Below, one piece after another: positions 2 to 17,425 of a DNA stretch of 24,564 nucleotides. Both the position numbers and the translations under genes were made by a program. The stretch comes from Candidatus Babeliales bacterium (GTDB lineage Bacteria > Babelota > Babeliae > Babelales > JANWKD01), in NCBI GenBank assembly GCA_025451595.1, contig JANWKD010000074.1, forward strand, positions 1 through 24,564, in the 5' to 3' direction. The notes beneath the pieces were generated by a model. That model was not told where the DNA came from. It worked only from the letters and a program-made list of their open reading frames with translations, and ran no database searches. The first letter of the stretch is position 1, and every line of letters starts with the position of its first letter.

Positions 2-1585
2 AGCCATCAATTAGAATATATGCAGCAATATTCACGCAAAATTGAAGAATCATTTTCAGTATGGCAAAAATACACAAATAGATTGAGCGATTATGCTCAG
101 CGATTAAAAGATTGTTTTGTTTGCACCAATACCAATCAAAAAATATCTACTTTACTTGCAGATGCAGTAATTAAATATATGGAAATTGAACGTGATCAAA
201 TTGTTCTTAAATATACTAACCTCGCTCGATTTATAATTGCTCAGCAAAAAATTGAGTTGCCGGAGCTGATCTGTTTTTGGAATAAGCCAGAATTGTATCA
301 TCAATTGGCGCTACGCGCGCGCAGACTCAATGATCGCGTACTCGTTCAATTTATTGAGGATGTAGCAATATTAATAAGTCAGGCGGTCCTTATGGCGGGC
401 AGCGGTTTGTATACGCAATGGATTAGCCAGGATGATGCGCAGATGTTTGAAGAATTGACCAAACAGCAAAATCAGTTAGCAGCAGATTTTGAGCAATTTA
501 TCAATACGCTACAAGCAAATCAAAAAGAAATTGCCGAGAATATTATTAATGCATTCAAGCAAGCGCAAACAGAACTTGAAAAAAAATACCAAGAAGCAAA
601 TACAGCGCAACAACAGGAGACTCTCTACCTTTTTAAAGCAATTAATTTAGACAAACCACGTATTAATTATTTACTGCAACCTGCAACCTCGTATGATCAG
701 ATTTTTCAAGCGTCTGTAATGAATACACCATTATTACAACCTTGGTATAACATATACCAAGTGGGCGACTGGGAGTTTGATATTACCAGCAATAGCTTTT
801 GGCAATACCAATTATCTCCATTCGGAACGCCATTTTGGAAGCCATTTAATGGCAAAGATGATCCATCTCGAAATGCAATTTTTTCTGAATTCATTCCAAG
901 CAACGGATCCACCTCTGATATTGAAATTGAATGTACCATCATCCAATGCACGTATCCTTTTTTTGCAGGAATCATATTCAACCGTGGTCGTTGGATTGCT
1001 GGTGATCCTGAACGGATTTGGCAATATCGATTAGTAGGGCTTTATGGAACGCAATCGGATGCTAGTAATGCGTATAGTCGCGCTATTAACCTTCATTTTG
1101 CGCAGCAATTATTACAATTACCAAAAACGAAAGACGATAAAGAATCGATTATTTCAGCGCTCGAACAAATTACCACGAGTAACTCAACCAATTTGTATCA
1201 ATTAGATAAAGATGATTCATTCCAACTCGTAAAAAAACCATTGACCTATATTTTTGCGATCAATACTTCCCCCAATAAAGTCACTATAACGGTATCTAAA
1301 AAAGAAGTTGCTGGTACTCAAACAGCAATTATGAAGTTATTTTCAACGTCAATTGATAATCTTGATAATTATCTTGCTGTGTATCATGGCATTGGATTTA
1401 TGGCCCCTGGATGCAAAGCACAGTTTGTTATAAAAAAACCGAGCGCTCTGACCATCAAAAATAGTGAAAGCGAATCCAAAATAGCTGGATTACTGAGCAA
1501 TAGTAAAAGAAGAAGTCACCGATTGGCCAATAACAATCAATCATTAAAAAGAACTCAATATACTCAGTTAAGTGTAGGTACGTAA
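2..1585 (+). CDS. Hypothetical protein, probably 5'-truncated: hydrophobic helix, coiled coil and ConA/LamG-like beta-rich C-terminal domain; partial paralog of the downstream giant protein
   Basis: Frame is open from base 2 (S-H-Q-L-E-Y) through the ATG at 20 to TAA 1583-1585, so the true start may lie outside the window. Hydrophobic stretch VLVQFIEDVAILISQAVLMAGSGLY (338-), Q/E/K-rich helical segment, then alternating beta-strand pattern (DIEIECTII, FFAGIIFN, YIFAIN, GIGFMAPG). Confidence 0.85.
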   Translation, partial: SHQLEYMQQYSRKIEESFSVWQKYTNRLSDYAQRLKDCFVCTNTNQKISTLLADAVIKYMEIERDQIVLKYTNLARFIIAQQKIELPELICFWNKPELYHQLALRARRLNDRVLVQFIEDVAILISQAVLMAGSGLYTQWISQDDAQMFEELTKQQNQLAADFEQFINTLQANQKEIAENIINAFKQAQTELEKKYQEANTAQQQETLYLFKAINLDKPRINYLLQPATSYDQIFQASVMNTPLLQPWYNIYQVGDWEFDITSNSFWQYQLSPFGTPFWKPFNGKDDPSRNAIFSEFIPSNGSTSDIEIECTIIQCTYPFFAGIIFNRGRWIAGDPERIWQYRLVGLYGTQSDASNAYSRAINLHFAQQLLQLPKTKDDKESIISALEQITTSNSTNLYQLDKDDSFQLVKKPLTYIFAINTSPNKVTITVSKKEVAGTQTAIMKLFSTSIDNLDNYLAVYHGIGFMAPGCKAQFVIKKPSALTIKNSESESKIAGLLSNSKRRSHRLANNNQSLKRTQYTQLSVGT

Positions 1586-4500
1586 TGAACTATATTATTT
1601 TTCTTATTGCATTGAATACCTTAATACTAAACGCTGCTCAACAATCCCAAAAATTACAGGAACCCGTCAATACAAAGGTTACCCCTACGCAAGCGTTAGC
1701 TATAAAAAAACAAGCAGCAACGGGCGCACAATTGGCTGCGCAGACGTTATTTAATCCTATTGATCCTACCAGCAAACCTTCAAAAGCCAATCCATATGGC
1801 ACCGTCTCATTGAATGAAGCAGCCATCAACGAAACATTTGGCCCGCAGGGTTTAAATTTGCCAACCGATTATATTCAATACATCAAGAACTTTTATTTTT
1901 ATTTAGAATATGTAGCTCGCTTGGAATACGCCGCAAAGCTTGCAACCATAGCTTCGACAAAAGGGATCGCTATGCTCGGAACTATAAGCAGTGGCGGGTG
2001 GCATGCATTTGTGCAAAAAATGGAGTCTGTAGCGGGCTCTTGGCAGAAACTTGAGCAAGAATTGCAAACAATAGCCAACCCTGCATGGTCAGACATTATT
2101 GGTACCATCAATGCTACCTCGTGGCAAAATTTAGCAGAAACTGATTTTTGGCAAAGCTTTAATAATCGTATTAATGCGCAAAGCTTGAACGATTCGATGG
2201 TATGGCAAAACTATTTAAAGATTATGATCAGCAATACTTTTGTGCAAGATACCGGATTGCTCACTTCTATTTTTGAATCAGAAGTAACTCTCTTTAAATA
2301 TATACCTAACATTGAAGTTGCCTACTACCATCCCGAATTTACCGTACTGCGCAATGGTTCTGAAATGTTTCGTATTAACCTCGTTCTTACTGATGCGCTC
2401 CGTACACGCATGGCTATGCAGTCGACTAATTGGAAGGGAATAGATTCAATTAATTTATTGGCCCAAGCGCAAAAATTTCAACAAACAGACTTTTATAAAG
2501 TAGTGACTCTTGCTGAACAAAATCCATCGAATAGTATGAATCAAATTGCTCAATCAAAATTTCCGTACGATCCTCAAATATTCAAAAAAGTTCCCTTACT
2601 ACAAGAACAACTTACCTGCTTTGCGATGATTAAAATAATTCAAGCATTAATTATGAACGTATATGACAAAACGCATCTTGATAATACTATGCAAATACTT
2701 TCAGATGCCAAGATTGCAAAACCGAGCCCTTCCATTTTTTTGTATACACCCAGCGATTATTTGTATCTTGATGATTTAGCGCACTTGAACGATAGCTTTG
2801 AGCAACATGCAAGCTCTCAACAGACACCTTCCCCAGCACAAGCTACGAAATTAGTAAACTATTTTATGAACCAAAAGCCAGAAGAGCGTATTGCAGTTGC
2901 TAGTTTTTTTGGAAATATGTGGAGCACCGTAAAAGACACGGCAGGCAAAAGCTGGGACGATGTCAAAAAAGGAGTAACCGACGCAGAGAAATTAGGCACT
3001 GATACGTTAGACTCCATCACAAATGAAGCAGAAGCGCTTGGCTTTGTAAGTCTTGGTGCTTTTTTAAAAGTTACGGGGCTTGATCCTCAAATGGCCGATA
3101 AATTATTAAAAGAATCACGGGATTTACAAAATAAAGTATATAAAGACCTAGAAGCTACCGGCGACGACCTGGATAATTTAGTAGACGATGTAGGTAATGC
3201 AGCAATTGATGTAAATTCTGGTATTGGTGCAGCAATTGGACAAAGTTTGTCTCTGCTTGATCCAAAACTTGGTAAAGCAGCGCAAGGCTTGTATACAAGT
3301 GTATTTGTAGCTGTCGTTCAATCTGCCGAATCAATGCCCCATTTAGTTATCGCAGAAGGACTTGGAATCGTTAAACTACAAGCAGATGCCGTGAATATGA
3401 TCGCCGATATTACTGCCGATGCGGTAACGGGAAATTATAAAGAACTGGGGGAAGATATTTATACCGGTATTGCACGAATGGCAAAGGACACTGCAGTTAC
3501 TATTCTAAATGTTATTACCTTAAGCGTTAAAAATGTAATTAATAGCTTAATGAATGCCGTAAAAATTACTGCGTATCTAACCGCTTTGCTTACTCGTGTA
3601 TGGATTGATATGTGGACTGCGGTAACATTTGTTGCAACAGGATTTGCTTCAATTTTTGACCCTTCCATCGATCCATTTTCCGTGTCACAAGAGGTTCAAG
3701 ACACGTTGAGCCAGCATGAAAGAACTATTAATGCAGTTATTACTACCGCACTACTGCTTGCGTCTATCCCACTGACTGGAGGAACATCTCTTGCTATTAT
3801 TGGTATGGGCGCTATGACTCTTGGCCCGCAACTATTTTCAGTGTATGGTAGCTACCAAGAAGATGAAATGGCAAAAGAGCAACTTGCTGATGAAAAGCAA
3901 TTTATCAGCAATTATCAAGCATATGTCGCGAATAATAAACTGATTAATATTGTGCAACAAAAACAATGGGCAAATGAGCTTCAGCTCAAATACCAAGCAC
4001 AAACAAGTAATCAAGAACGTGCGCTGGGGTTCTATGAAAACTATTTAAACGAAAATATAAATAGTTTGAAAACGCAGTTCGCTCAAGCACTCGGACAACG
4101 TTGGGCAACCCTATTGCAGCCTGACTCACATGGCCTTGCGCTTGGTGACGTTGGTTCTATTTATTCGGTACAAACAAATCTATTTAATCTTAATCCGTCT
4201 CAAGGTTTTCCATTATACAGTATGGCCCGTCAATCGTTTAGCCAGGAAATTGCGGTCGCTCCCGCTCTTATTTGGCAGGCCGACAGCGGTCAGCCTACCT
4301 CTGCGGTGACCCAAAATTGGTTTAATCAAAAAGAGACGATGATTCTCAATGAGCCAGTTCATAATGCTGAAATTCGTTTTAAAGCCATTTATGTACTCAA
4401 TAGCTACCACATTGGTTTATATCTTGGGGGCGCTACTATTGATATTGCCGACGTCATTAAAAACAAAATGGCGCCAATCAATGCAGATCATTTAGCAAAA

Positions 4501-5889
4501 ATGATTGTATTCAGAAAAGTAGGAAAGAATAGTAAAACAACAGTACAACTGTACGAACACGAAGGTGCGGGTTGGGTTACGCCTTTGAGTAATGGTCCCA
4601 CTTTTGCATTAGGTACCTGGTATCACATTAAAGTCAATTTGATTGACCCGGGAACCACCTTACAAGTCAAAGTGTGGGCAGAACCAGATCAAGAGCCAAA
4701 CTTTTGGCAATCGTTTACCGTCAGTCCGAGTGATCAAAAAACAGTTGGGGTGATTTCATCTGGCGCTTCGATTGAATATCAAATAGTCAATCCAAAACCA
4801 AAGATCGAGCCGATCACAAGTTTACGTCCTGAAAATAAATATCTAAGTCCCGTCGATCAGCAAACCTGGCTTCCATTGCAATTTGAAAAAGAACGTGAAA
4901 AAGCTGCTCAACAACAAATGAAATATCTTCTACAGCCGACGATTGGTAGTTTACAATTAAAACCATACGACACCATGCAAATTGTAAAAGAGAATTATAT
5001 TTACACGACACAAGACACTCAATTAATAGATAAAAATAATAAGTTTATTACTGATTATGTGTTGCCAGCAACGGTCAAATATTATGAGGGATCAAACAAT
5101 GTGCAAGAGGTAACCAATATTGGCCAACAACCACACAACGACTCAAGCATCGTCAGTCTTGTGACCAATAAGGCCTTTACTAAGAATGGTACTGATGTTC
5201 ATTTTGCGGTCACTGATCTTTTTGATACGTATCAAAAAAATCATCCAATACCCGATGATCTGGTAAAAACATTAAAATCTATGCAGCAAGAGTATCAATC
5301 TATGCTCATGAATGTGACATTTGGCATTTGGAAATTACAAGCAACAAGCAGTCAAGATGTTCAAAATCATCAATACATATACACTATGCCATTATATGAC
5401 CAAAATAATAAACTTATTCCAAATGCACTTGATTATCTATTGTTCGCTCGCTGGGAGAATAATTATATTGCTACCGCTCCCGGAAACCCAGGCTATAATT
5501 ATCTTGATGTTTTATCAGATACAACGAGTCAGTATGTAATTATTAGTCTTGTTAGTGGTAACGCCTATTCAAACTCAAGCAAAACCCCTTTACTGACCGG
5601 CTTTGCAGTGAATAACCTATTACAGAATTATCAAAATACCTATGGAAACGTGCGATCAGATTTAGTTTCTCAAATACAAGCTGCCGTTGCTTTATACAAC
5701 CCGCCGACATCAGACAAAACTGCTAACTCTTCAGGACCTGCAACGGGTACCGGAGCTAATAATGTACAAAGCACGACATCTGGTTCCAATGCGAGCGGCA
5801 ACGATCAACCAACTGGCGGTTCTTCCAATGATAGTTTACAAAATCGCAGTGATGATGCGGGTGGTGATAATGTAGATTTTGGCTTTTGA
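1585..5889 (+). CDS. 1434-aa secreted multidomain protein: signal peptide, unknown N-domain, amphipathic/hydrophobic helical region, coiled coil, ConA/LamG-like domain, two tandem ~126-aa repeats, low-complexity tail
   Basis: Uninterrupted 4.3-kb ORF with a TAATG stop/start overlap at 1583-1587. N-terminus MNYIIFLIALNTLILNA is Sec-signal-like. Hydrophobic hairpin at 3727-3840; GTWYHIKVNL...LQVKVW is typical of ConA/LamG-type sandwiches. The CDS is certain; the function is not. Confidence 0.9.
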   Translation: MNYIIFLIALNTLILNAAQQSQKLQEPVNTKVTPTQALAIKKQAATGAQLAAQTLFNPIDPTSKPSKANPYGTVSLNEAAINETFGPQGLNLPTDYIQYIKNFYFYLEYVARLEYAAKLATIASTKGIAMLGTISSGGWHAFVQKMESVAGSWQKLEQELQTIANPAWSDIIGTINATSWQNLAETDFWQSFNNRINAQSLNDSMVWQNYLKIMISNTFVQDTGLLTSIFESEVTLFKYIPNIEVAYYHPEFTVLRNGSEMFRINLVLTDALRTRMAMQSTNWKGIDSINLLAQAQKFQQTDFYKVVTLAEQNPSNSMNQIAQSKFPYDPQIFKKVPLLQEQLTCFAMIKIIQALIMNVYDKTHLDNTMQILSDAKIAKPSPSIFLYTPSDYLYLDDLAHLNDSFEQHASSQQTPSPAQATKLVNYFMNQKPEERIAVASFFGNMWSTVKDTAGKSWDDVKKGVTDAEKLGTDTLDSITNEAEALGFVSLGAFLKVTGLDPQMADKLLKESRDLQNKVYKDLEATGDDLDNLVDDVGNAAIDVNSGIGAAIGQSLSLLDPKLGKAAQGLYTSVFVAVVQSAESMPHLVIAEGLGIVKLQADAVNMIADITADAVTGNYKELGEDIYTGIARMAKDTAVTILNVITLSVKNVINSLMNAVKITAYLTALLTRVWIDMWTAVTFVATGFASIFDPSIDPFSVSQEVQDTLSQHERTINAVITTALLLASIPLTGGTSLAIIGMGAMTLGPQLFSVYGSYQEDEMAKEQLADEKQFISNYQAYVANNKLINIVQQKQWANELQLKYQAQTSNQERALGFYENYLNENINSLKTQFAQALGQRWATLLQPDSHGLALGDVGSIYSVQTNLFNLNPSQGFPLYSMARQSFSQEIAVAPALIWQADSGQPTSAVTQNWFNQKETMILNEPVHNAEIRFKAIYVLNSYHIGLYLGGATIDIADVIKNKMAPINADHLAKMIVFRKVGKNSKTTVQLYEHEGAGWVTPLSNGPTFALGTWYHIKVNLIDPGTTLQVKVWAEPDQEPNFWQSFTVSPSDQKTVGVISSGASIEYQIVNPKPKIEPITSLRPENKYLSPVDQQTWLPLQFEKEREKAAQQQMKYLLQPTIGSLQLKPYDTMQIVKENYIYTTQDTQLIDKNNKFITDYVLPATVKYYEGSNNVQEVTNIGQQPHNDSSIVSLVTNKAFTKNGTDVHFAVTDLFDTYQKNHPIPDDLVKTLKSMQQEYQSMLMNVTFGIWKLQATSSQDVQNHQYIYTMPLYDQNNKLIPNALDYLLFARWENNYIATAPGNPGYNYLDVLSDTTSQYVIISLVSGNAYSNSSKTPLLTGFAVNNLLQNYQNTYGNVRSDLVSQIQAAVALYNPPTSDKTANSSGPATGTGANNVQSTTSGSNASGNDQPTGGSSNDSLQNRSDDAGGDNVDFGF
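4939..5700 (+). repeat. Two tandem protein-level repeats (aa 1119-1244 and 1245-1372) inside the giant ORF
   Basis: Repeat 1: TIGSLQL..YIYT..LIDKNNKFITDYVL..IVSLVT..FAVTDLFDTYQ..DDLV..Y. Repeat 2: TFGIWKL..YIYT..LYDQNNKLI..DYLL..IISLVS..FAVNNLLQNYQ..SDLV..Y. Confidence 0.8.
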
Positions 5890-6864
5890 TCAAGAAATCT
5901 CGCATCTTGCTTGTGATTCTCTTGACATTTCTTTTGCATGTTTTGCGCCTACTGAACGAAGAAATTCATAAATCTCTTTATGATTAACCCGATCAACGTA
6001 ATCTAAGGCAGTCCTGCATGTATTCGAGGTTTGAGATTTATTAAGTTGATTGATATCTCCACCGTAATCAATAAATGATTTAACAATGTTTTTAAAGTTC
6101 TGAATGGTTTCATTTATTCTAAGCCCACTTTCTATTGCGATAGCCGCCGCCCGGTATGTATCCCTAAGTAAATCAGGAACAATAGCTCCCTTTTCAAATA
6201 ATTTCTTTAAAAGATTTAATGCGCGCTTTCTGTCATTGGCACTATGTTCTAGTATTATTCTCTCAATAAGATTATCTAATACGAAAAAAGTATATTTTTT
6301 TTGCGGAGTATTATCATATGAGCCTGCGCCTGCTTGTAACAGCAATTCCGCCATTTCATATTGTTTGGTCTTAACTGCATCTAATAACAATTCATAGCCA
6401 TAGTTTTTCAAAAAATCTTGCACGGATTGGTTTTTTAATAATAATATTAGTTCCAAATTATTAATATCATCTCTCCTGATCATTAATTTAATAGCATGTT
6501 CAAAACCATGAAATTTTATTTCATCCGCAAGATTTTTAATACGATGAAAATCAGCGCCACAATATTGCAATAATTCAATTAAACTCTTTTCATAAGAACG
6601 AGGTATGTAAGGATCTAATAACAATATTAATAACGCAAGGTTTACGTTATTTCTTGCTTGAATGAGATAACTTCCTACCATTTTAATATTATTATCAGTA
6701 ATCTTTTCGAGTTTTGATCGGTCACCCGTTATTAATATTTGATCAACTAATGTTTTAAGCGATTGACAGACTAAACTTTCAGGTTGCTGCAAGGATAATA
6801 GATATTGATGATGGCTAATTTCAAATAGCATCAGAAAAAACAGTATAACAATTTTTTTATTCAT
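5890..6864 (-). CDS. Secreted ankyrin-repeat protein (paralog 4 of tandem array)
   Basis: GAGGAG RBS 5 nt upstream of the ATG. Signal-like N-terminus MNKKIVILFFLMLF. Ankyrin-like motifs LLDAVKTKQYEMAELLLQAGA, IVKSFIDYGGDINQ, RTALDYV..EIYEFLRSVGA. Confidence 0.8.
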   Translation of the reverse strand: MNKKIVILFFLMLFEISHHQYLLSLQQPESLVCQSLKTLVDQILITGDRSKLEKITDNNIKMVGSYLIQARNNVNLALLILLLDPYIPRSYEKSLIELLQYCGADFHRIKNLADEIKFHGFEHAIKLMIRRDDINNLELILLLKNQSVQDFLKNYGYELLLDAVKTKQYEMAELLLQAGAGSYDNTPQKKYTFFVLDNLIERIILEHSANDRKRALNLLKKLFEKGAIVPDLLRDTYRAAAIAIESGLRINETIQNFKNIVKSFIDYGGDINQLNKSQTSNTCRTALDYVDRVNHKEIYEFLRSVGAKHAKEMSRESQARCEIS

Positions 6865-6917
6865 TTTAACTCCTCTTCATTATTTGAAAGTTTATCTGCA
6901 TTCAATAGGCTCACTAA

Positions 6918-8114
6918 TTAGTCATGCAGAACCCCTCTTGACCAATGATATTTATACAATGGTTCAAACGATCTTTTTTGAGCCCCTAATCCAATAAGAA
7001 AATTTTGCATATCTTTATCTTGCGCAAATTGAAATACTGACTGCTGGTCCATATTTATTGCCTGAATATCTGCACCAAATTCGACCAATAATTTAATTAC
7101 TTTTTTTAAATCATCTTTGTCTTTGATGTGCTTCATAGCAAATATAATAGGCGGATCAAATACTTCTGACTTGCTATTTAAACTTAATCCAGACACTGCA
7201 TAAGATATTATATTATTTTTAAATGACTCATAATCTTTATCGCTCACGTATTTCCAAATTATATCTTCCGGAAGCTTCTCAATAAGCTCTTTTGATCTTC
7301 TTGAAAGAGGTATATTGGATTCTATAAGCGATTTAATTTTTTTAAATTCAAACCTTTCACTATATCTAGCAAGTAATTCCTCTGTCTGATCAAATTTATA
7401 GCTATTTATAATTTTGTCGGCCGTAAGATAATCTGCTCCACAATTAATCAAATTAATGTCATTATAATACTGATCATCCATAAGATCTTCGATGGCATAA
7501 CTTCCCGTTAAAACAGAATTTACAACAGCTGCAGTAGGATCATTGTCTGCTTCAAAAAGCGATAATCCCACGCTTTGCAATTCAACTGGTAGTTGTTTAA
7601 TAAGAGATACATTATCCATTTTGAGTGCTTGATCTACTTGAGCTTTTACAACGCTACAAATAACTTGACTACGAAGAGCAATTGGTAGCGTTTTTATTAT
7701 TTTAAAACTAGTATAATCACTAAATTCAATGATCTCTTTTAGTATCCGGGAAGTAATTAAATAATATTCTTTTTCTAATTTGACAAGTTCCTCAAAAAAA
7801 GCGTGCTGTATTTCTAATGGAAACTCGTTTATTTGTTCTAATACCATAAGATCGTTGGCATCTCTTGCTTTTTGATATAAAGCTCTTGCAAGGCCTTTTG
7901 CTTGTTGTTTCACTATATTAACAAAAGGATAGGTGACTTCTGGAGTATTATTAAAAAATTCAATTAATCGACTCATATCTCTCGTTTGAACTGCATCCTT
8001 TATTAATGATTGTATCGCGAGAGTCGTTAATGCCGGCATTCGTTGTCCCGTATTTACATAATTTCCAATACAAATTAAAAGCAATAGTATTATTAATCTT
8101 TTTATTGTTATCAT
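6918..8114 (-). CDS. Secreted protein with LPxxL helical repeats and C-terminal ankyrin repeats (paralog 3)
   Basis: Signal-like MITIKRLIILLLLICIG. C-terminal PPIIFAM..VIKLLVEFGADIQAINMDQQSVFQFA..NFLIGLGA. TAATG overlap with the upstream gene at 8112-8116 (minus strand). Confidence 0.8.
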   Translation of the reverse strand: MITIKRLIILLLLICIGNYVNTGQRMPALTTLAIQSLIKDAVQTRDMSRLIEFFNNTPEVTYPFVNIVKQQAKGLARALYQKARDANDLMVLEQINEFPLEIQHAFFEELVKLEKEYYLITSRILKEIIEFSDYTSFKIIKTLPIALRSQVICSVVKAQVDQALKMDNVSLIKQLPVELQSVGLSLFEADNDPTAAVVNSVLTGSYAIEDLMDDQYYNDINLINCGADYLTADKIINSYKFDQTEELLARYSERFEFKKIKSLIESNIPLSRRSKELIEKLPEDIIWKYVSDKDYESFKNNIISYAVSGLSLNSKSEVFDPPIIFAMKHIKDKDDLKKVIKLLVEFGADIQAINMDQQSVFQFAQDKDMQNFLIGLGAQKRSFEPLYKYHWSRGVLHD

Positions 8115-9247
8115 TATCTTCTTACTCCTAAATCAAAGAGGAGATTCCGTAATTTTTGATTATCACCTGCGGCTTTGAACACGGTGAGTCCATCGGGATT
8201 GACCGCATTGACATGAGCGCCTGCATTAACAAGCATCCGTATAATATCCGGATAGGAATCATCCCGTGGATAAACTGCAGCTTGCATCACGGCATAAATC
8301 AACGGATAGGTAGAGTATTGAGTTCCATCCGCTAACCTAACATGGTAAAGCTCATTAATATTTATATCTTCCTGTAATAACAACTCGAGAAATGGTATTT
8401 TTGCAAATAAAATTGCAGTAGTCAAAAAACCATTAAAGAAATCTTTCTGCTCTTGCACAATTCGTTGGCCAAGCACTGATTGAGAAATTAGCCTATACAT
8501 CGCTATTTTTTTAGCTACCTCATATTTATTATCGCCAGCTGATAAACCTTGAGGCTCCTTATGCAAAATCGTTGAATAAATAGAAGTAAGTTCTTTTGTT
8601 AGAGCTGCTTGGGGGTCTTGATTATAACCTAATTTATACAAGTCGTTAATAATCTCATTTATCAACTCAAGCCGCACCCCACAACTGCCGAAAAGCCTGG
8701 CTAATAATTCTGGATTATCAAACGGTGGCGTTAAAACATACTTACGCAAGGCAATATTGAGCAAAGCTACCTCTGGGTTGTTATCAGCATCAAGCAATGC
8801 TATAACCGGAAATTGTAATTCAAAGGGTAGTTCTTGCAATAAAGAAGGAAAATTTGCATTAGGTGATTTACGCGCTATAAAATCTTGCAGTCCTTGGCAT
8901 ATCAAATCCTGCTCTATTAAATGCTGTAGCAAAAAACCTTTTAGATGTACAGGTAACTGATTTAATTTTGCCACAAACGAAAGATCACCATTAATTACTT
9001 GAGAAACTAAAAAAGCTATAACCTCATTAATTTTATTATTCTGAATAGCCGATTCCGTAACAATTTGTTGTAAGTCCCTAGGCAAATTATTAATTTCTAA
9101 TAAGCTATCGAGATTTCGCTCTTCAATTACTCTATCCATCAAGCCTTCCGCTACTGTTTTTGCCGCTAATAACTTGGCAGAAGGAACCTTGTCCATAGTA
9201 TATAGTTGACTGCTCAGACAAAACAATAACACTATTAATTTTTTCAT
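8114..9247 (-). CDS. Secreted protein with LPxxL helical repeats and C-terminal ankyrin repeats (paralog 2)
   Basis: AAGGA RBS; signal-like MKKLIVLLFCLSSQLYT. Ankyrin motifs TYPLIYAV..IIRMLVNAGAHVNAVNPDGLTVFKAA..NLLFDLGV. Confidence 0.82.
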   Translation of the reverse strand: MKKLIVLLFCLSSQLYTMDKVPSAKLLAAKTVAEGLMDRVIEERNLDSLLEINNLPRDLQQIVTESAIQNNKINEVIAFLVSQVINGDLSFVAKLNQLPVHLKGFLLQHLIEQDLICQGLQDFIARKSPNANFPSLLQELPFELQFPVIALLDADNNPEVALLNIALRKYVLTPPFDNPELLARLFGSCGVRLELINEIINDLYKLGYNQDPQAALTKELTSIYSTILHKEPQGLSAGDNKYEVAKKIAMYRLISQSVLGQRIVQEQKDFFNGFLTTAILFAKIPFLELLLQEDININELYHVRLADGTQYSTYPLIYAVMQAAVYPRDDSYPDIIRMLVNAGAHVNAVNPDGLTVFKAAGDNQKLRNLLFDLGVRR

Positions 9248-9269
9248 TATATTATCCTTTTTTAAACGC

Positions 9270-10457
9270 CTATCTTTTTGCCCCTAAACTCATTAAAAAA
9301 TTTATCAACTCTTGATTATCACTTGCGGCTTGTAATGGAGTTAGACCATTTGAATCAGTAGCATTAATATCCGCGCCAACACTAATAAATAATTTTATTA
9401 GTTCTTTTTTCCTATTTATATCCCCAGGATATAAAATTATTGCTTGTAATGGCGTGACTTCTTTATCCGGCAAAATATTTAAAATGTTGCTTATATTAAA
9501 ATCATATTCTTTAAGTTGTAATGATTCTAATGTTGATTCAAGACCTGTATCATCACCGTTATTTAAGTACGTTAAAATCAATAGACTAAGCATTATACCG
9601 ACATCATCAACTGATTTGTCTATATAGTGCGAATCCAAGATAGTACTGAAAAATTTTGGTGAAATCTTTCCATTTTTTAATAATTCATTAATTGGTGCGC
9701 TTTTAATGACATTGACAAAAGAATCAAACTCAACTGGATCAATAAGCTGACAATCAGCAAAATAATTTTTTATGCGTTCTTTAACTTCAACTGAATTTTC
9801 GTCCTCTAAATTAATATCCAGTACAAGTGCTAATTCATTCATATTTCTTGAAGATAAAGAACTAGCTAAAGTAGATACGTCGCCTGGAAAATTAGTTAAA
9901 ATACTCGAATCTTTATATTTTGCTATCAATAGGGCAAGCGCTCGAACAATACTACAGGTAATTACTTTTCGTAATGTTTCATTAGTTATTGACGATATTA
10001 ACAATTGATTCAAATCATTACCTTCAATGACTTTTTGTATTAGAATTAATGGCAAAATATTGGGCTGACGCAGATAATGATTATATTTGTCGAAAAAAAT
10101 TTCATTTAATGGACTCGGTAGTTGTTGCAATTGCTTACTAAAAAATTCAATTGGACCATCCACTTTAAAAGCATCTAGGTCTATTCCTTTGTTGTTAAAT
10201 ATTTGCAAATCTAAAAAACGTCTTATTATTTCGTCTGATGCTTGAGCAATTTTCGTTAAAAAAGGTTCTGTTATGTCGGATGGATATTGAAAAAAAGTAA
10301 TTAATGGCATCAAATTGCCGGTTTCTATTACTTCAGCTATTATTTGATCAACTAACGTTTTGGTAGCTTGCAACGAAGCCTGAGCTTTTCTGGTTACTGC
10401 ACCTACATAGTTATTGATAAACATTAAACAAAATAAAAATATCAATTTCTTTAACAT
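9270..10457 (-). CDS. Secreted protein with helical repeats and C-terminal ankyrin repeats (paralog 1)
   Basis: AAGGA RBS at 10464-10468 (minus); signal-like MLKKLIFLFCLMFINNYVGA. Ankyrin motifs VTPLQAII..LIKLFISVGADINATDSNGLTPLQAA..NFLMSLGA. Confidence 0.82.
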   Translation of the reverse strand: MLKKLIFLFCLMFINNYVGAVTRKAQASLQATKTLVDQIIAEVIETGNLMPLITFFQYPSDITEPFLTKIAQASDEIIRRFLDLQIFNNKGIDLDAFKVDGPIEFFSKQLQQLPSPLNEIFFDKYNHYLRQPNILPLILIQKVIEGNDLNQLLISSITNETLRKVITCSIVRALALLIAKYKDSSILTNFPGDVSTLASSLSSRNMNELALVLDINLEDENSVEVKERIKNYFADCQLIDPVEFDSFVNVIKSAPINELLKNGKISPKFFSTILDSHYIDKSVDDVGIMLSLLILTYLNNGDDTGLESTLESLQLKEYDFNISNILNILPDKEVTPLQAIILYPGDINRKKELIKLFISVGADINATDSNGLTPLQAASDNQELINFLMSLGAKR

Positions 10458-16192: not shown

Positions 16193-17425
16193 ATGAGCAA
16201 AATCATTTCACTTCCCTTAATTTTTCTTTTCTTTTTTCATTCTATTCATCCGCACGGTTTTTGCGCAGGCACACAAATTCAAACGGCGCAAGGCTATGCA
16301 AATATCGAGAATCAATCGATTGGCACGCACGTCCAAAGCTTGAACAGTGCAACACAATATTGTTTGCAGCCCGTTACGCACATTACCAAAACAAAAGCAA
16401 ATTGTTTTGTACGAATATGGTTTAATGATGAGTATCTCGATACGTCGCCTGACCAACTGTTTTATTGTCCTCATGAAGAAAAATGGATTCCTGCTCAACA
16501 GTTAGCTTCGCAGTCTATTCTTACTAAAAATATCTCTCAAGATTTGATTATTAATAACATTGAGATTATTCATCAAGACGCAGAATTTTATAGTATCACG
16601 GTAGCCAATGATCACACGTTCTTTGTCACCGAGCAACAGATCCTCACTCATAATATTCTACCAATTGTTATTGGTTTTTCTTTTGCCTTTGGTGGTGGCA
16701 TTGAATTTTTGGGTGCAACCATTGGCATAAGCACATTAGGCTTATTGCTTGGGTTCAAGTTTTATAACGATAGATCAAAGAAAGAGCTGCAATTCCAGCG
16801 TTTAGAAAATTCACCAACTATTCCAACGATTAATGCAAATACCTCTATCGTTGCTATTGAACCACGAAAATCTGGATGTGGCAGTACGCAGCCCGCAACC
16901 ATTGAAGATCATATTCTTATCGCACCCATACAAAAACCTAAGGAGCCAAATCGCGGTTGCTATAACCCTGTGCCAGTACCGGAACGCAAGCCAGGATGCG
17001 GTGGCAGCCTGCAACAAAAAACTGATGATTTTATCTTACAACAAGAGACAACGAGTCAAAAACCTGGCCGATTTGTCGTAACACCAGAAAATGTTAAAGG
17101 CGAAATATCTTCTGACATTAAAACAGGAATTAAGCTAAGCAATTCTGCGATAGCTACTCTCGATAAGATAAATAAAAAAGTTGGTCTTAAAGGAACCATT
17201 ACCAATAAAATTGCTACACAAGCAGCTAAAGAATTAGGTTTTGAAAAAATAGGAGAAATGTCCCGTGGTCGTGCGATATTTAGAAAAGGCAATAAATATA
17301 TTTCAGCAGACAAATATAGACATAATGGTGGATTTTGGAATATGGCTAACTCTGTAGATGAAATAATGACAAAACCGGGAAGATTAGGAACTTATGATAT
17401 ATTTCTTAACAAAATAGGTGATTAA
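16193..17425 (+). CDS. Polymorphic toxin: signal peptide, Hint domain, hydrophobic hairpin, linker, C-terminal Ntox21-type (CdiA-CT ECL/EC16-like) RNase domain
   Basis: Hint: GFCAGTQIQTAQGY.NIE..IG..V.S (16256-) to YSITVANDHTFFV..ILTHN (-16654). C-terminus AAKELGFEKI..AIFRKGNKYISADKYRHNGGFW..RLGTYDIFLNKIGD matches the recalled Ntox21 motifs [DS]xDxxxH and RxG[ST]. Confidence 0.88.
   Translation: MSKIISLPLIFLFFFHSIHPHGFCAGTQIQTAQGYANIENQSIGTHVQSLNSATQYCLQPVTHITKTKANCFVRIWFNDEYLDTSPDQLFYCPHEEKWIPAQQLASQSILTKNISQDLIINNIEIIHQDAEFYSITVANDHTFFVTEQQILTHNILPIVIGFSFAFGGGIEFLGATIGISTLGLLLGFKFYNDRSKKELQFQRLENSPTIPTINANTSIVAIEPRKSGCGSTQPATIEDHILIAPIQKPKEPNRGCYNPVPVPERKPGCGGSLQQKTDDFILQQETTSQKPGRFVVTPENVKGEISSDIKTGIKLSNSAIATLDKINKKVGLKGTITNKIATQAAKELGFEKIGEMSRGRAIFRKGNKYISADKYRHNGGFWNMANSVDEIMTKPGRLGTYDIFLNKIGD

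Follow-up and report, generated by a model that had tools for sequence, protein, structure and literature searches.

The chlamydial Inc proteins, which belong to a vacuole-dwelling bacterium, are small type III secretion system (T3SS) substrates without signal peptides and carry an apolar hairpin of ~40 residues. This hairpin, which often adjoins coiled coils, has its two flanks on one side of the membrane. In the Cry toxins (domains I–III) and in Vip3, amphipathic helices surround an apolar hairpin and are followed by beta-sandwich modules of the carbohydrate-binding type, and buried hairpins that insert into membranes are also known from the colicin and diphtheria T domains. Here, we analysed a protein with an apolar hairpin encoded in the DNA of a Candidatus Babeliales bacterium. 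The window, i.e., the whole stretch of 24,564 nucleotides (nt), is the entire contig JANWKD010000074.1 from an assembly (G000) of 965 kb that is 65% complete. The plus-strand open reading frame (ORF) at 1585–5889 of the window encodes a protein of 1434 amino acids (aa), designated P0001 (family fam0), which houses a series of amphipathic helices and the hairpin. A preliminary description of this DNA had likened the hairpin to that of the T3SS translocators of the SctE type (SipB/IpaB) and the domain order to that of AB toxins. P0001 has 23 full-length relatives with identities of 26–74%, the named ones being hypothetical proteins of Candidatus Dependentiae or Babeliales. The Dependentiae are obligate parasites of protists that possess hundreds of proteins with signal peptides and no known route for effectors into the host (PMC6561590).

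The hairpin of P0001 is of the conserved, all-apolar helical type that is found in membrane-embedded or membrane-inserting proteins. Membrane propensity was assessed using the Kyte–Doolittle and Eisenberg scales and a position-independent Hessa sum. The segment aa 715–753 was the most hydrophobic internal part of P0001, the Kyte–Doolittle means of its 19-mers reaching 1.55–1.69. As its mean Eisenberg hydrophobicity (<H>) was high (0.5–0.63) and its hydrophobic moment low (0.10–0.18), the hairpin is apolar on all faces. The region preceding it (aa 436–714) gave a single sharp peak of hydrophobicity periodicity at 100 degrees (power 8.8 against a background of ~0.7). The coordinates in the preliminary description proved exact, the amphipathic helices starting with SFFGNMW at aa 440 (nt 2902) and the 33-residue segment INAV...TLG corresponding to aa 715–747 (nt 3727–3825). 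The long amphipathic helices were also present as described, but the in-phase stretch measured ~275 aa instead of ~200 aa. The AlphaFold2 (AF2) model of aa 436–860, a poor one with a predicted local distance difference test (pLDDT) value of 51, was all-helical, with a turn at 731–735 and arm 2 leading straight into a long helix.

To describe the family, a profile of aa 436–860 was used. At E ≤ 1e-3, it matched 167 representatives (50% clusters), of which 105 remained at E ≤ 1e-10. Across ~100 representatives, the positions 714–731 of arm 1 were apolar in 81–100% of the sequences at all positions but 716 and 717, and charged in no more than 2% at all but 716 and 728. Two residues of the turn were near-invariant (T731, 91%; G733, 95%), and those framing the hairpin were kept as well (H711, 84%; D760, 98%). 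As the apolar arm 1 and the framing and turn residues are retained in so many representatives, the hairpin is not a product of chance. Meanwhile, the literal motif TGGxSLA, which the earlier comparison with translocators had put forward, is not conserved: position 732 was occupied by G in 64% and by D in 15% of the sequences (T-D-G forms), and positions 734–737 were variable. No Pfam model and no public description of the fam0 family were found.

The tip of the hairpin is a hotspot of insertion. Inserts of 43–639 aa were present there in 32 representatives, the profile match splitting at positions 302–313, and they were of low complexity, rich in A, E, K, and T, and mostly net negative. The long-insert genes of two further genomes (loci L015 and L016) occupy the equivalent position in the operon described below and are therefore orthologues. 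Inserts of this size can be accommodated by a loop that stays on the near (cis) side of a membrane but are hard to reconcile with a tip that crosses a target membrane after secretion. Among the relatives of 1900–2500 aa (P0093, P0094, P0096, P0099, P0105, and others), the all-alpha N-terminal domain (N-domain) is duplicated in tandem, and the unit made up of an amphipathic helix, an H-R motif, and an apolar helix is present twice. The doubled unit would give four apolar helices in these long relatives, an even number that keeps both ends of the protein on one side.

The product of the adjacent upstream gene, P0002 (fam1), was examined as a partner of P0001. The TAA stop codon of P0002 overlaps with the ATG of P0001 (TAATG). 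A BLASTP comparison of the two proteins gave E 0.003, and an hhalign comparison of the two families was collinear over 289 columns, although statistically weak (E 0.05, probability 1%). The prediction of the P0001–P0002 complex reached an ipSAE interface score of 0.67 (0.66–0.73 in three runs), as compared with 0.00 for the best control; this mark is attained by 58 of 80 solved complexes and by 2 of 110 mismatched pairs, a calibration that is rough here, since our own alignments were used. The runs shared at least 53% of the contacts, and the pLDDT of the partner was at least 69. As no solved homologue exists, the score does not reflect the memory of a known complex. The interface joined residues 763–839 of P0001 to residues 140–239 of P0002 with a heptad spacing, which indicates a parallel coiled coil, and contacts between the beta domains were seen beyond it. 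Confident contacts started only from residue 763, and the hairpin was not placed confidently against P0002. These models suggest that P0001 probably pairs with its upstream neighbour through a parallel coiled coil and the beta domains. Judging by the BLASTP result, the collinearity, and the complex prediction, P0002 is a distant paralogue of the P0001 module comprising arm 2, the coiled coil, and the beta domain.

The P0001 gene closes an operon of three genes, fam3-fam1-fam0, which was recovered in 11–13 related loci. The fam1 gene lies directly upstream of fam0 in 12 of the 13 related loci and in L015 and L016 as well, while in the window the position of fam3 falls beyond the contig end. The proteins of all three families have signal-peptide-like N-termini; in fam0, an uncharged N-terminal run, from which the signal peptide is read, was seen in 73 of the 102 family members. 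No Pfam family was found for the fam3, fam1, or fam0 proteins, and hhalign detected no likeness of fam3 to either fam0 or fam1. The alignment of fam3 contains a conserved C-terminal block with cysteines (C419, C440, and further consensus Cys). In the relatives, a divergent M23 peptidase gene borders the operon on one side, and uvrC-clpB come after fam0. The profile of the middle region was single-copy in the window's genome and, at E ≤ 1e-10, occurred in 29 of the 101 phylum genomes sampled, with a concentration in three GTDB families; more divergent forms of fam0 probably fall below this cut-off. The single copy, the syntenic operon, and the overlapping stop and start codons together make up the pattern of a core component and not that of an accessory toxin.

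The reading that we tentatively prefer, at somewhat less than an even chance, takes the hairpin as the foot by which a lineage-specific, exported, heterodimeric stalk complex is embedded in a membrane, most likely one of the bacterium itself. P0001 would be exported by means of its N-terminal signal peptide, and the two arms (aa 715–731 and 736–753), joined by the T-G-G turn, would sit in the bilayer, most likely that of the bacterium's own inner membrane. The N-domain and the amphipathic helices would lie on the outer side, and so would the coiled coil, the beta domain, and the C-terminal repeats. Arm 2 would lead into a parallel coiled coil of ~80 residues formed with the homologous stalk of P0002, and the beta domains of the two proteins would pair at the far end of the stalk. 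The complex would probably be completed by fam3, the third exported protein, which is encoded upstream in all relatives. We favour the bacterium's own membrane because the arms are apolar on all faces, because some orthologues have arms of transmembrane (TM) grade and a fam1 protein without such a segment, and because the tip behaves as a cis loop and the synteny is that of a core gene. Thus, the arms of the L010 orthologue have apparent insertion free energies (dGapp, simple Hessa sum) of −2.0 and +0.4, and the fam1 protein of this locus lacks any segment under the threshold of +3, which fits an anchored subunit with a soluble partner. We infer the membrane and the topology from these features; as to the function, the complex could serve as a scaffold of the envelope, or as a device at the surface or for contact with the host, with heads that resemble sugar-binding domains.

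Several observations weigh against a membrane foot. The arms are only marginally hydrophobic in P0001 (dGapp of +2.7 to +4.2) and in most relatives, and their integration by the translocon is therefore not assured. The values of arm 1 were +2.7 to +4.0 in P0001, with a family median of +2.3, a minimum of −5.8, and negative values in 18 of 96 members; the family median of arm 2 was +4.6. The charges of the flanks show no clean positive-inside pattern: K+R averaged 2.2 residues ahead of arm 1, 0.0 behind it, and 2.7 ahead of arm 2 in the long-insert members, and the region after arm 2 is acidic. The mostly negative net charge of the tip inserts and the poor quality of the AF2 model of the hairpin region (see above) also count on this side. 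Moreover, pairing of the stalks would prevent the apolar helix of P0002 from forming a single TM span, so the ancestral element may not span a membrane.

Some of these observations would suit a soluble core, in which the two apolar helices are buried at the base of the stalk under the four amphipathic helices and the P0002 helix and never enter a membrane. Most of the arm dGapp values are positive, the arm-2 homologue of P0002 could not span a membrane without placing its stalk on the wrong side, and the flank charges do not prescribe a consistent topology. However, such a core would have to bury completely ~40 residues without a polar face, and the complex model contains no confident placement of the hairpin with its partner. 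In addition, the arms of a subset of orthologues have dGapp values of −2 to −6, which are typical of real TM helices. We consider a soluble core distinctly unlikely.

The pairing with P0002 also bears on another explanation, namely that P0001 belongs to a secreted alpha-helical pore or translocon that inserts into a host membrane and acts like YaxAB/XaxAB, a T3SS translocon, or Inc proteins without being homologous to them. The heterodimer would fold in the periplasm, where the amphipathic helices would shield the arms, and would leave by a secretin or in outer-membrane vesicles; its beta heads would bind host glycans, and the hairpin would be driven into the membrane of the vacuole. Consistent with this, the gene of a paralogous partner adjoins that of P0001, with overlapping stop and start codons, and this partner is predicted to bind, as in bipartite toxins. 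The arms, marginal in most members, could pass Sec, for which the Sec-exported Hbl/Nhe components provide a parallel. The long in-phase amphipathic region adjoins the hairpin and has a composition like that of lipid-surface proteins, and the weak matches to the fold of the N-domain include XaxA, YaxB, AhlB, AhlC, HblL1, and MakA. Two or three secretins, often as close pairs, were found in each of the 13 genomes searched, and the Dependentiae are described as having Sec export only, many effectors with signal peptides, and outer-membrane vesicles (PMC6561590), a biology that calls for some device of this kind. On the other hand, tip inserts of up to 639 aa would be hard to push across a target membrane, the TM-grade arms of some orthologues would be retained by Sec, the gene is single-copy, syntenic, and core-like, and no pore-former family of Pfam was matched by the whole P0001 or listed for the middle regions. 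We regard such a pore as unlikely, though not negligibly so. In the window's genome, the two secretin genes lie close together (G000:C71:485-955 and 5334-5813).

A bolder proposal can be made for the trio fam3-fam1-fam0 as the missing host-membrane device of the Dependentiae, i.e., an alpha-helical hairpin pore or translocon delivered by Sec and a secretin or vesicles, unrelated to the type III, type IV, or type VI secretion systems, that passes effectors to the protist cytoplasm. The hairpin of P0001 would cross the membrane, the paired beta heads would bind host glycans, and the effectors would be ankyrin proteins, nucleases, and proteases. We rate this proposal as quite improbable.

The kinship with SctE translocators proposed in the preliminary description was examined using profile, plasmid, and genome searches. 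The hmmscan analysis of the whole P0001 at E ≤ 1 matched no Pfam family and hence no SseC, IpaB, or pore-former profile; for 13 middle regions searched at E ≤ 10, no translocator or pore-former family was among the matches listed (25 of 43). The ClyA-family profiles (HlyE PF06109, Bacillus_HBL PF05791, and XaxAB/YaxAB) likewise matched neither the whole P0001 nor appeared among the listed middle-region matches. A tblastn search of the hairpin (aa 700–765) against 72,556 plasmids at E ≤ 10 returned four chance-level matches (E 6–9), none annotated as a translocator; the value of this search rests on the assumption that the relevant virulence plasmids (IpaB, YopB) are in the collection. The T3SS gate PF00771 (SctV/FlhA) reached the family cut-off in 1 of the 101 phylum genomes and was not found in the window's genome at its 65% completeness, and the positive controls E. 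coli, B. subtilis, Caulobacter, and Thermotoga were detected. The lone strong FHIPEP (FlhA/SctV) match (G052:C11:179248-181099) carries an in-frame TGA and may be a contamination, a flagellar remnant, or a pseudogene. Furthermore, P0001 has a Sec-type signal peptide, and no class II chaperone gene is adjacent to fam0, whose neighbours are P0002 and ankyrin genes in the window and fam3, the M23 peptidase gene, uvrC, and clpB in the relatives. The SctE-type trait that P0001 does possess, two apolar helices next to a coiled coil, is generic and common to many unrelated families. We conclude that P0001 is not detectably akin to SctE.

A Foldseek search with the hairpin-region model gave a bile-acid symporter as the best match (E 0.055), with a Tc holotoxin at E 0.67 and ClyA at E 0.85; at the pLDDT of this model, these matches are meaningless. 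When the profile of aa 436–860 was compared with the PDB, it matched only influenza HA2 (E 0.03–0.3), apolipophorin-III (E 0.05), and helical bundles of designed origin (best 9.7e-5). The outer ring of its sequence matches (E 1e-10 to 1e-4) contained phage tape-measure proteins and proteins that match the ApoLp-III, Baculo_PEP_C, or CsmC repeat families, and the amphipathic region was also compositionally similar to phasin. We take the PDB and outer-ring matches to reflect the composition of amphipathic helices and not kinship. The best score of aa 436–860 in the ESM Atlas was 0.82, which is uninformative.

The AB-toxin reading had given the N-domain the possible role of an enzymatic cargo. 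The model of aa 25–435, based on an alignment of 69 sequences, was a confident all-alpha bundle (pLDDT 91, predicted template modelling score 0.90) with no recognisable enzyme fold: a Foldseek search with it found nothing below E 0.19 and no structure, of an enzyme or otherwise, that it clearly resembles. The duplication of this domain in longer relatives is also unlike a catalytic payload, and the cargo role finds no support. No PDB or Pfam sequence match was found for the conserved domain aa 850–1085. The best hints, both weak, were Laminin_G_3 (E 0.14) and CBM_6 (E 0.1), seen in one of the 13 members each, and its ESM features scored 0.94 to the ConA-like clusters PelX_N, 3-keto-disaccharide hydrolase, and GH32C, a score that shuffled proteins reach 4–10 times per 100. 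Judging from such sequence-level signals, this domain may be a beta-sandwich, possibly ConA-like. Accordingly, the proposed AB-toxin-like order stands in part: amphipathic helices, hairpin, coiled coil, and beta domain do follow one another, but the N-domain has no enzyme-like match, and the lectin fold has language-model neighbours only. P0001 does not appear to be built like an AB toxin. A literal translocator module of the SctE family or an AB toxin with an enzymatic N-domain, for which a general resemblance speaks (an apolar hairpin with a Gly-Gly turn by a coiled coil, then a possibly lectin-like beta domain), has next to no probability left in the face of the results of these searches, the signal peptide, and the unconserved motif.

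The coordinates of the features of P0001 and P0002 are collected in Table 1.

Table 1. Features of the P0002–P0001 gene pair in the window.
Feature	Position (nt)	Strand	Basis or remark
P0002 (fam1), upstream paralogue	2–1585	+	5' end lost at the contig end; one marginal apolar helix, coiled coil, beta domain
P0001 (fam0) ORF, 1434 aa	1585–5889	+	Full-length relatives, n = 23
Putative Sec-type signal peptide, aa 1–18, uncharged run ending LNA-A	1585–1638	+	Read from sequence; Kyte–Doolittle mean 1.44
N-domain, aa 25–435, predicted all-alpha bundle	1657–2889	+	Confident structure prediction
In-phase amphipathic helices, ~275 aa (aa 440–714), A/V/L/D/T/G-rich	2902–3726	+	100-degree periodicity; long helices in AF2
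Hairpin arm 1, aa 715–731, all faces apolar	3727–3777	+	Hydrophobicity, moment, family conservation
Turn T-G-G-T-S, aa 731–735, family insertion hotspot	3775–3789	+	Alignment; inserts in relatives
Hairpin arm 2, aa 736–753, Gly-rich, less hydrophobic	3790–3843	+	Continues as the first coiled-coil helix; homologue of the one apolar helix in P0002
Conserved stalk helices, aa 754–849	3844–4131	+	Predicted parallel heterodimeric coiled coil with P0002 aa 140–239; interface residues 763–839 heptad-spaced
Conserved domain aa 850–1085, taken as beta-sandwich, possibly ConA-like	4132–4839	+	Alignment, ESM features, contacts with the P0002 counterpart in the complex model
Two tandem repeats of ~130 aa, aa 1105–1380	4897–5724	+	Repeated YIYT...DY...SLV motifs read from sequence; alignment
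Low-complexity tail, S/G/T/N-rich, FGF at the end	5725–5886	+	Read from sequence

The C-termini of the 102 family members often show F-G or F-S patterns (FGG, GGF, FSF, FSL), and the tails of relatives contain short G-phi-x-phi-G repeats. A C-terminal aromatic beta-signal like that of outer-membrane proteins was considered and rejected, since the ending was not consistent: only 22 of the 102 members end in hydrophobic-x-hydrophobic.

Neighbouring genes in the window encode ankyrin-repeat proteins, UvrC, ClpB, a Hint-Ntox21 toxin, TpiA, SecG, MlaEF, and MoxR, as would be expected in a member of this lineage. A four-gene minus-strand array within 5890–10457, with at least two ankyrin-repeat genes, lies between the P0001 gene and uvrC-clpB. 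In L010, L012, and L013, uvrC-clpB directly follow the large gene, and in most other loci they are found within a few kb. In the ORF of 410 aa at 16193–17425, a pre-toxin HINT domain and an Ntox21 toxin domain occur together. At the other end of the operon, a protein of 400–420 aa with an M23 C-terminal domain is encoded divergently next to fam3 in 11 loci (L001–L011), and a PilO-like protein is encoded beyond the M23 gene in four loci. These neighbours may point to a link with the cell wall or envelope, or they may reflect plain synteny.

We also considered the idea that the operon provides an outer-membrane tether. No known homologue of such a tether had been found in ten Dependentiae genomes, according to a preprint (10.1101/2021.05.31.446380). 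In our survey, one OmpA-family domain (PF00691) was found in 99 of the 101 phylum genomes; therefore, the premise of a missing tether does not hold, and the idea was dropped. The domain sits in an ORF of ~210–260 aa, and the copy of the window's genome is located at G000:C5:5949-6242.

This conserved, lineage-specific operon for three large exported proteins is one of the few concrete candidates in the phylum for a novel architecture of the envelope or a novel device acting on host membranes. What is added here is the family-wide anatomy of the hairpin, the hotspot at its tip, the predicted heterodimeric stalk, the N-domain model, and the tests of the SctE and AB-toxin hypotheses. The hairpin anatomy, the tip hotspot, and the confident N-domain model provide structural biologists and groups growing Chromulinavorax, Babela, or Vermiphilus with defined constructs and predictions to test. 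The likeness to IpaB/SipB, being generic, should stay out of the annotation.

Compared with the known systems, P0001 resembles the SctE proteins (IpaB, SipB, YopB; PF04888, PF03518) in having an apolar hairpin by a coiled coil and in belonging to a bacterium with an intracellular life in eukaryotes. It differs from them in the Sec signal peptide of fam0, the huge turn inserts of its relatives, the beta domains, and the lack of sequence similarity, and it is 3–4 times longer. By description, its hairpin is similar to that of the Inc proteins, although P0001 is large and has a signal peptide. With the bipartite and tripartite toxins of the ClyA family (YaxAB/XaxAB, AhlABC, Hbl/Nhe, MakA), it shares adjacent paralogues and, by prediction, a heteromer with long helical stalks and an apolar hairpin at one end. 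The closest known parallel to its domain order is found in Cry and Vip3. P0001 differs from these toxins and from the colicin and diphtheria T domains in that no sequence or fold match was found and no separate catalytic A part is recognisable, and its own beta fold is putative. The elements combined in the architecture of P0001 are known ones: a hairpin of apolar helices, a coiled coil formed as a heterodimer, and heads that resemble lectins.

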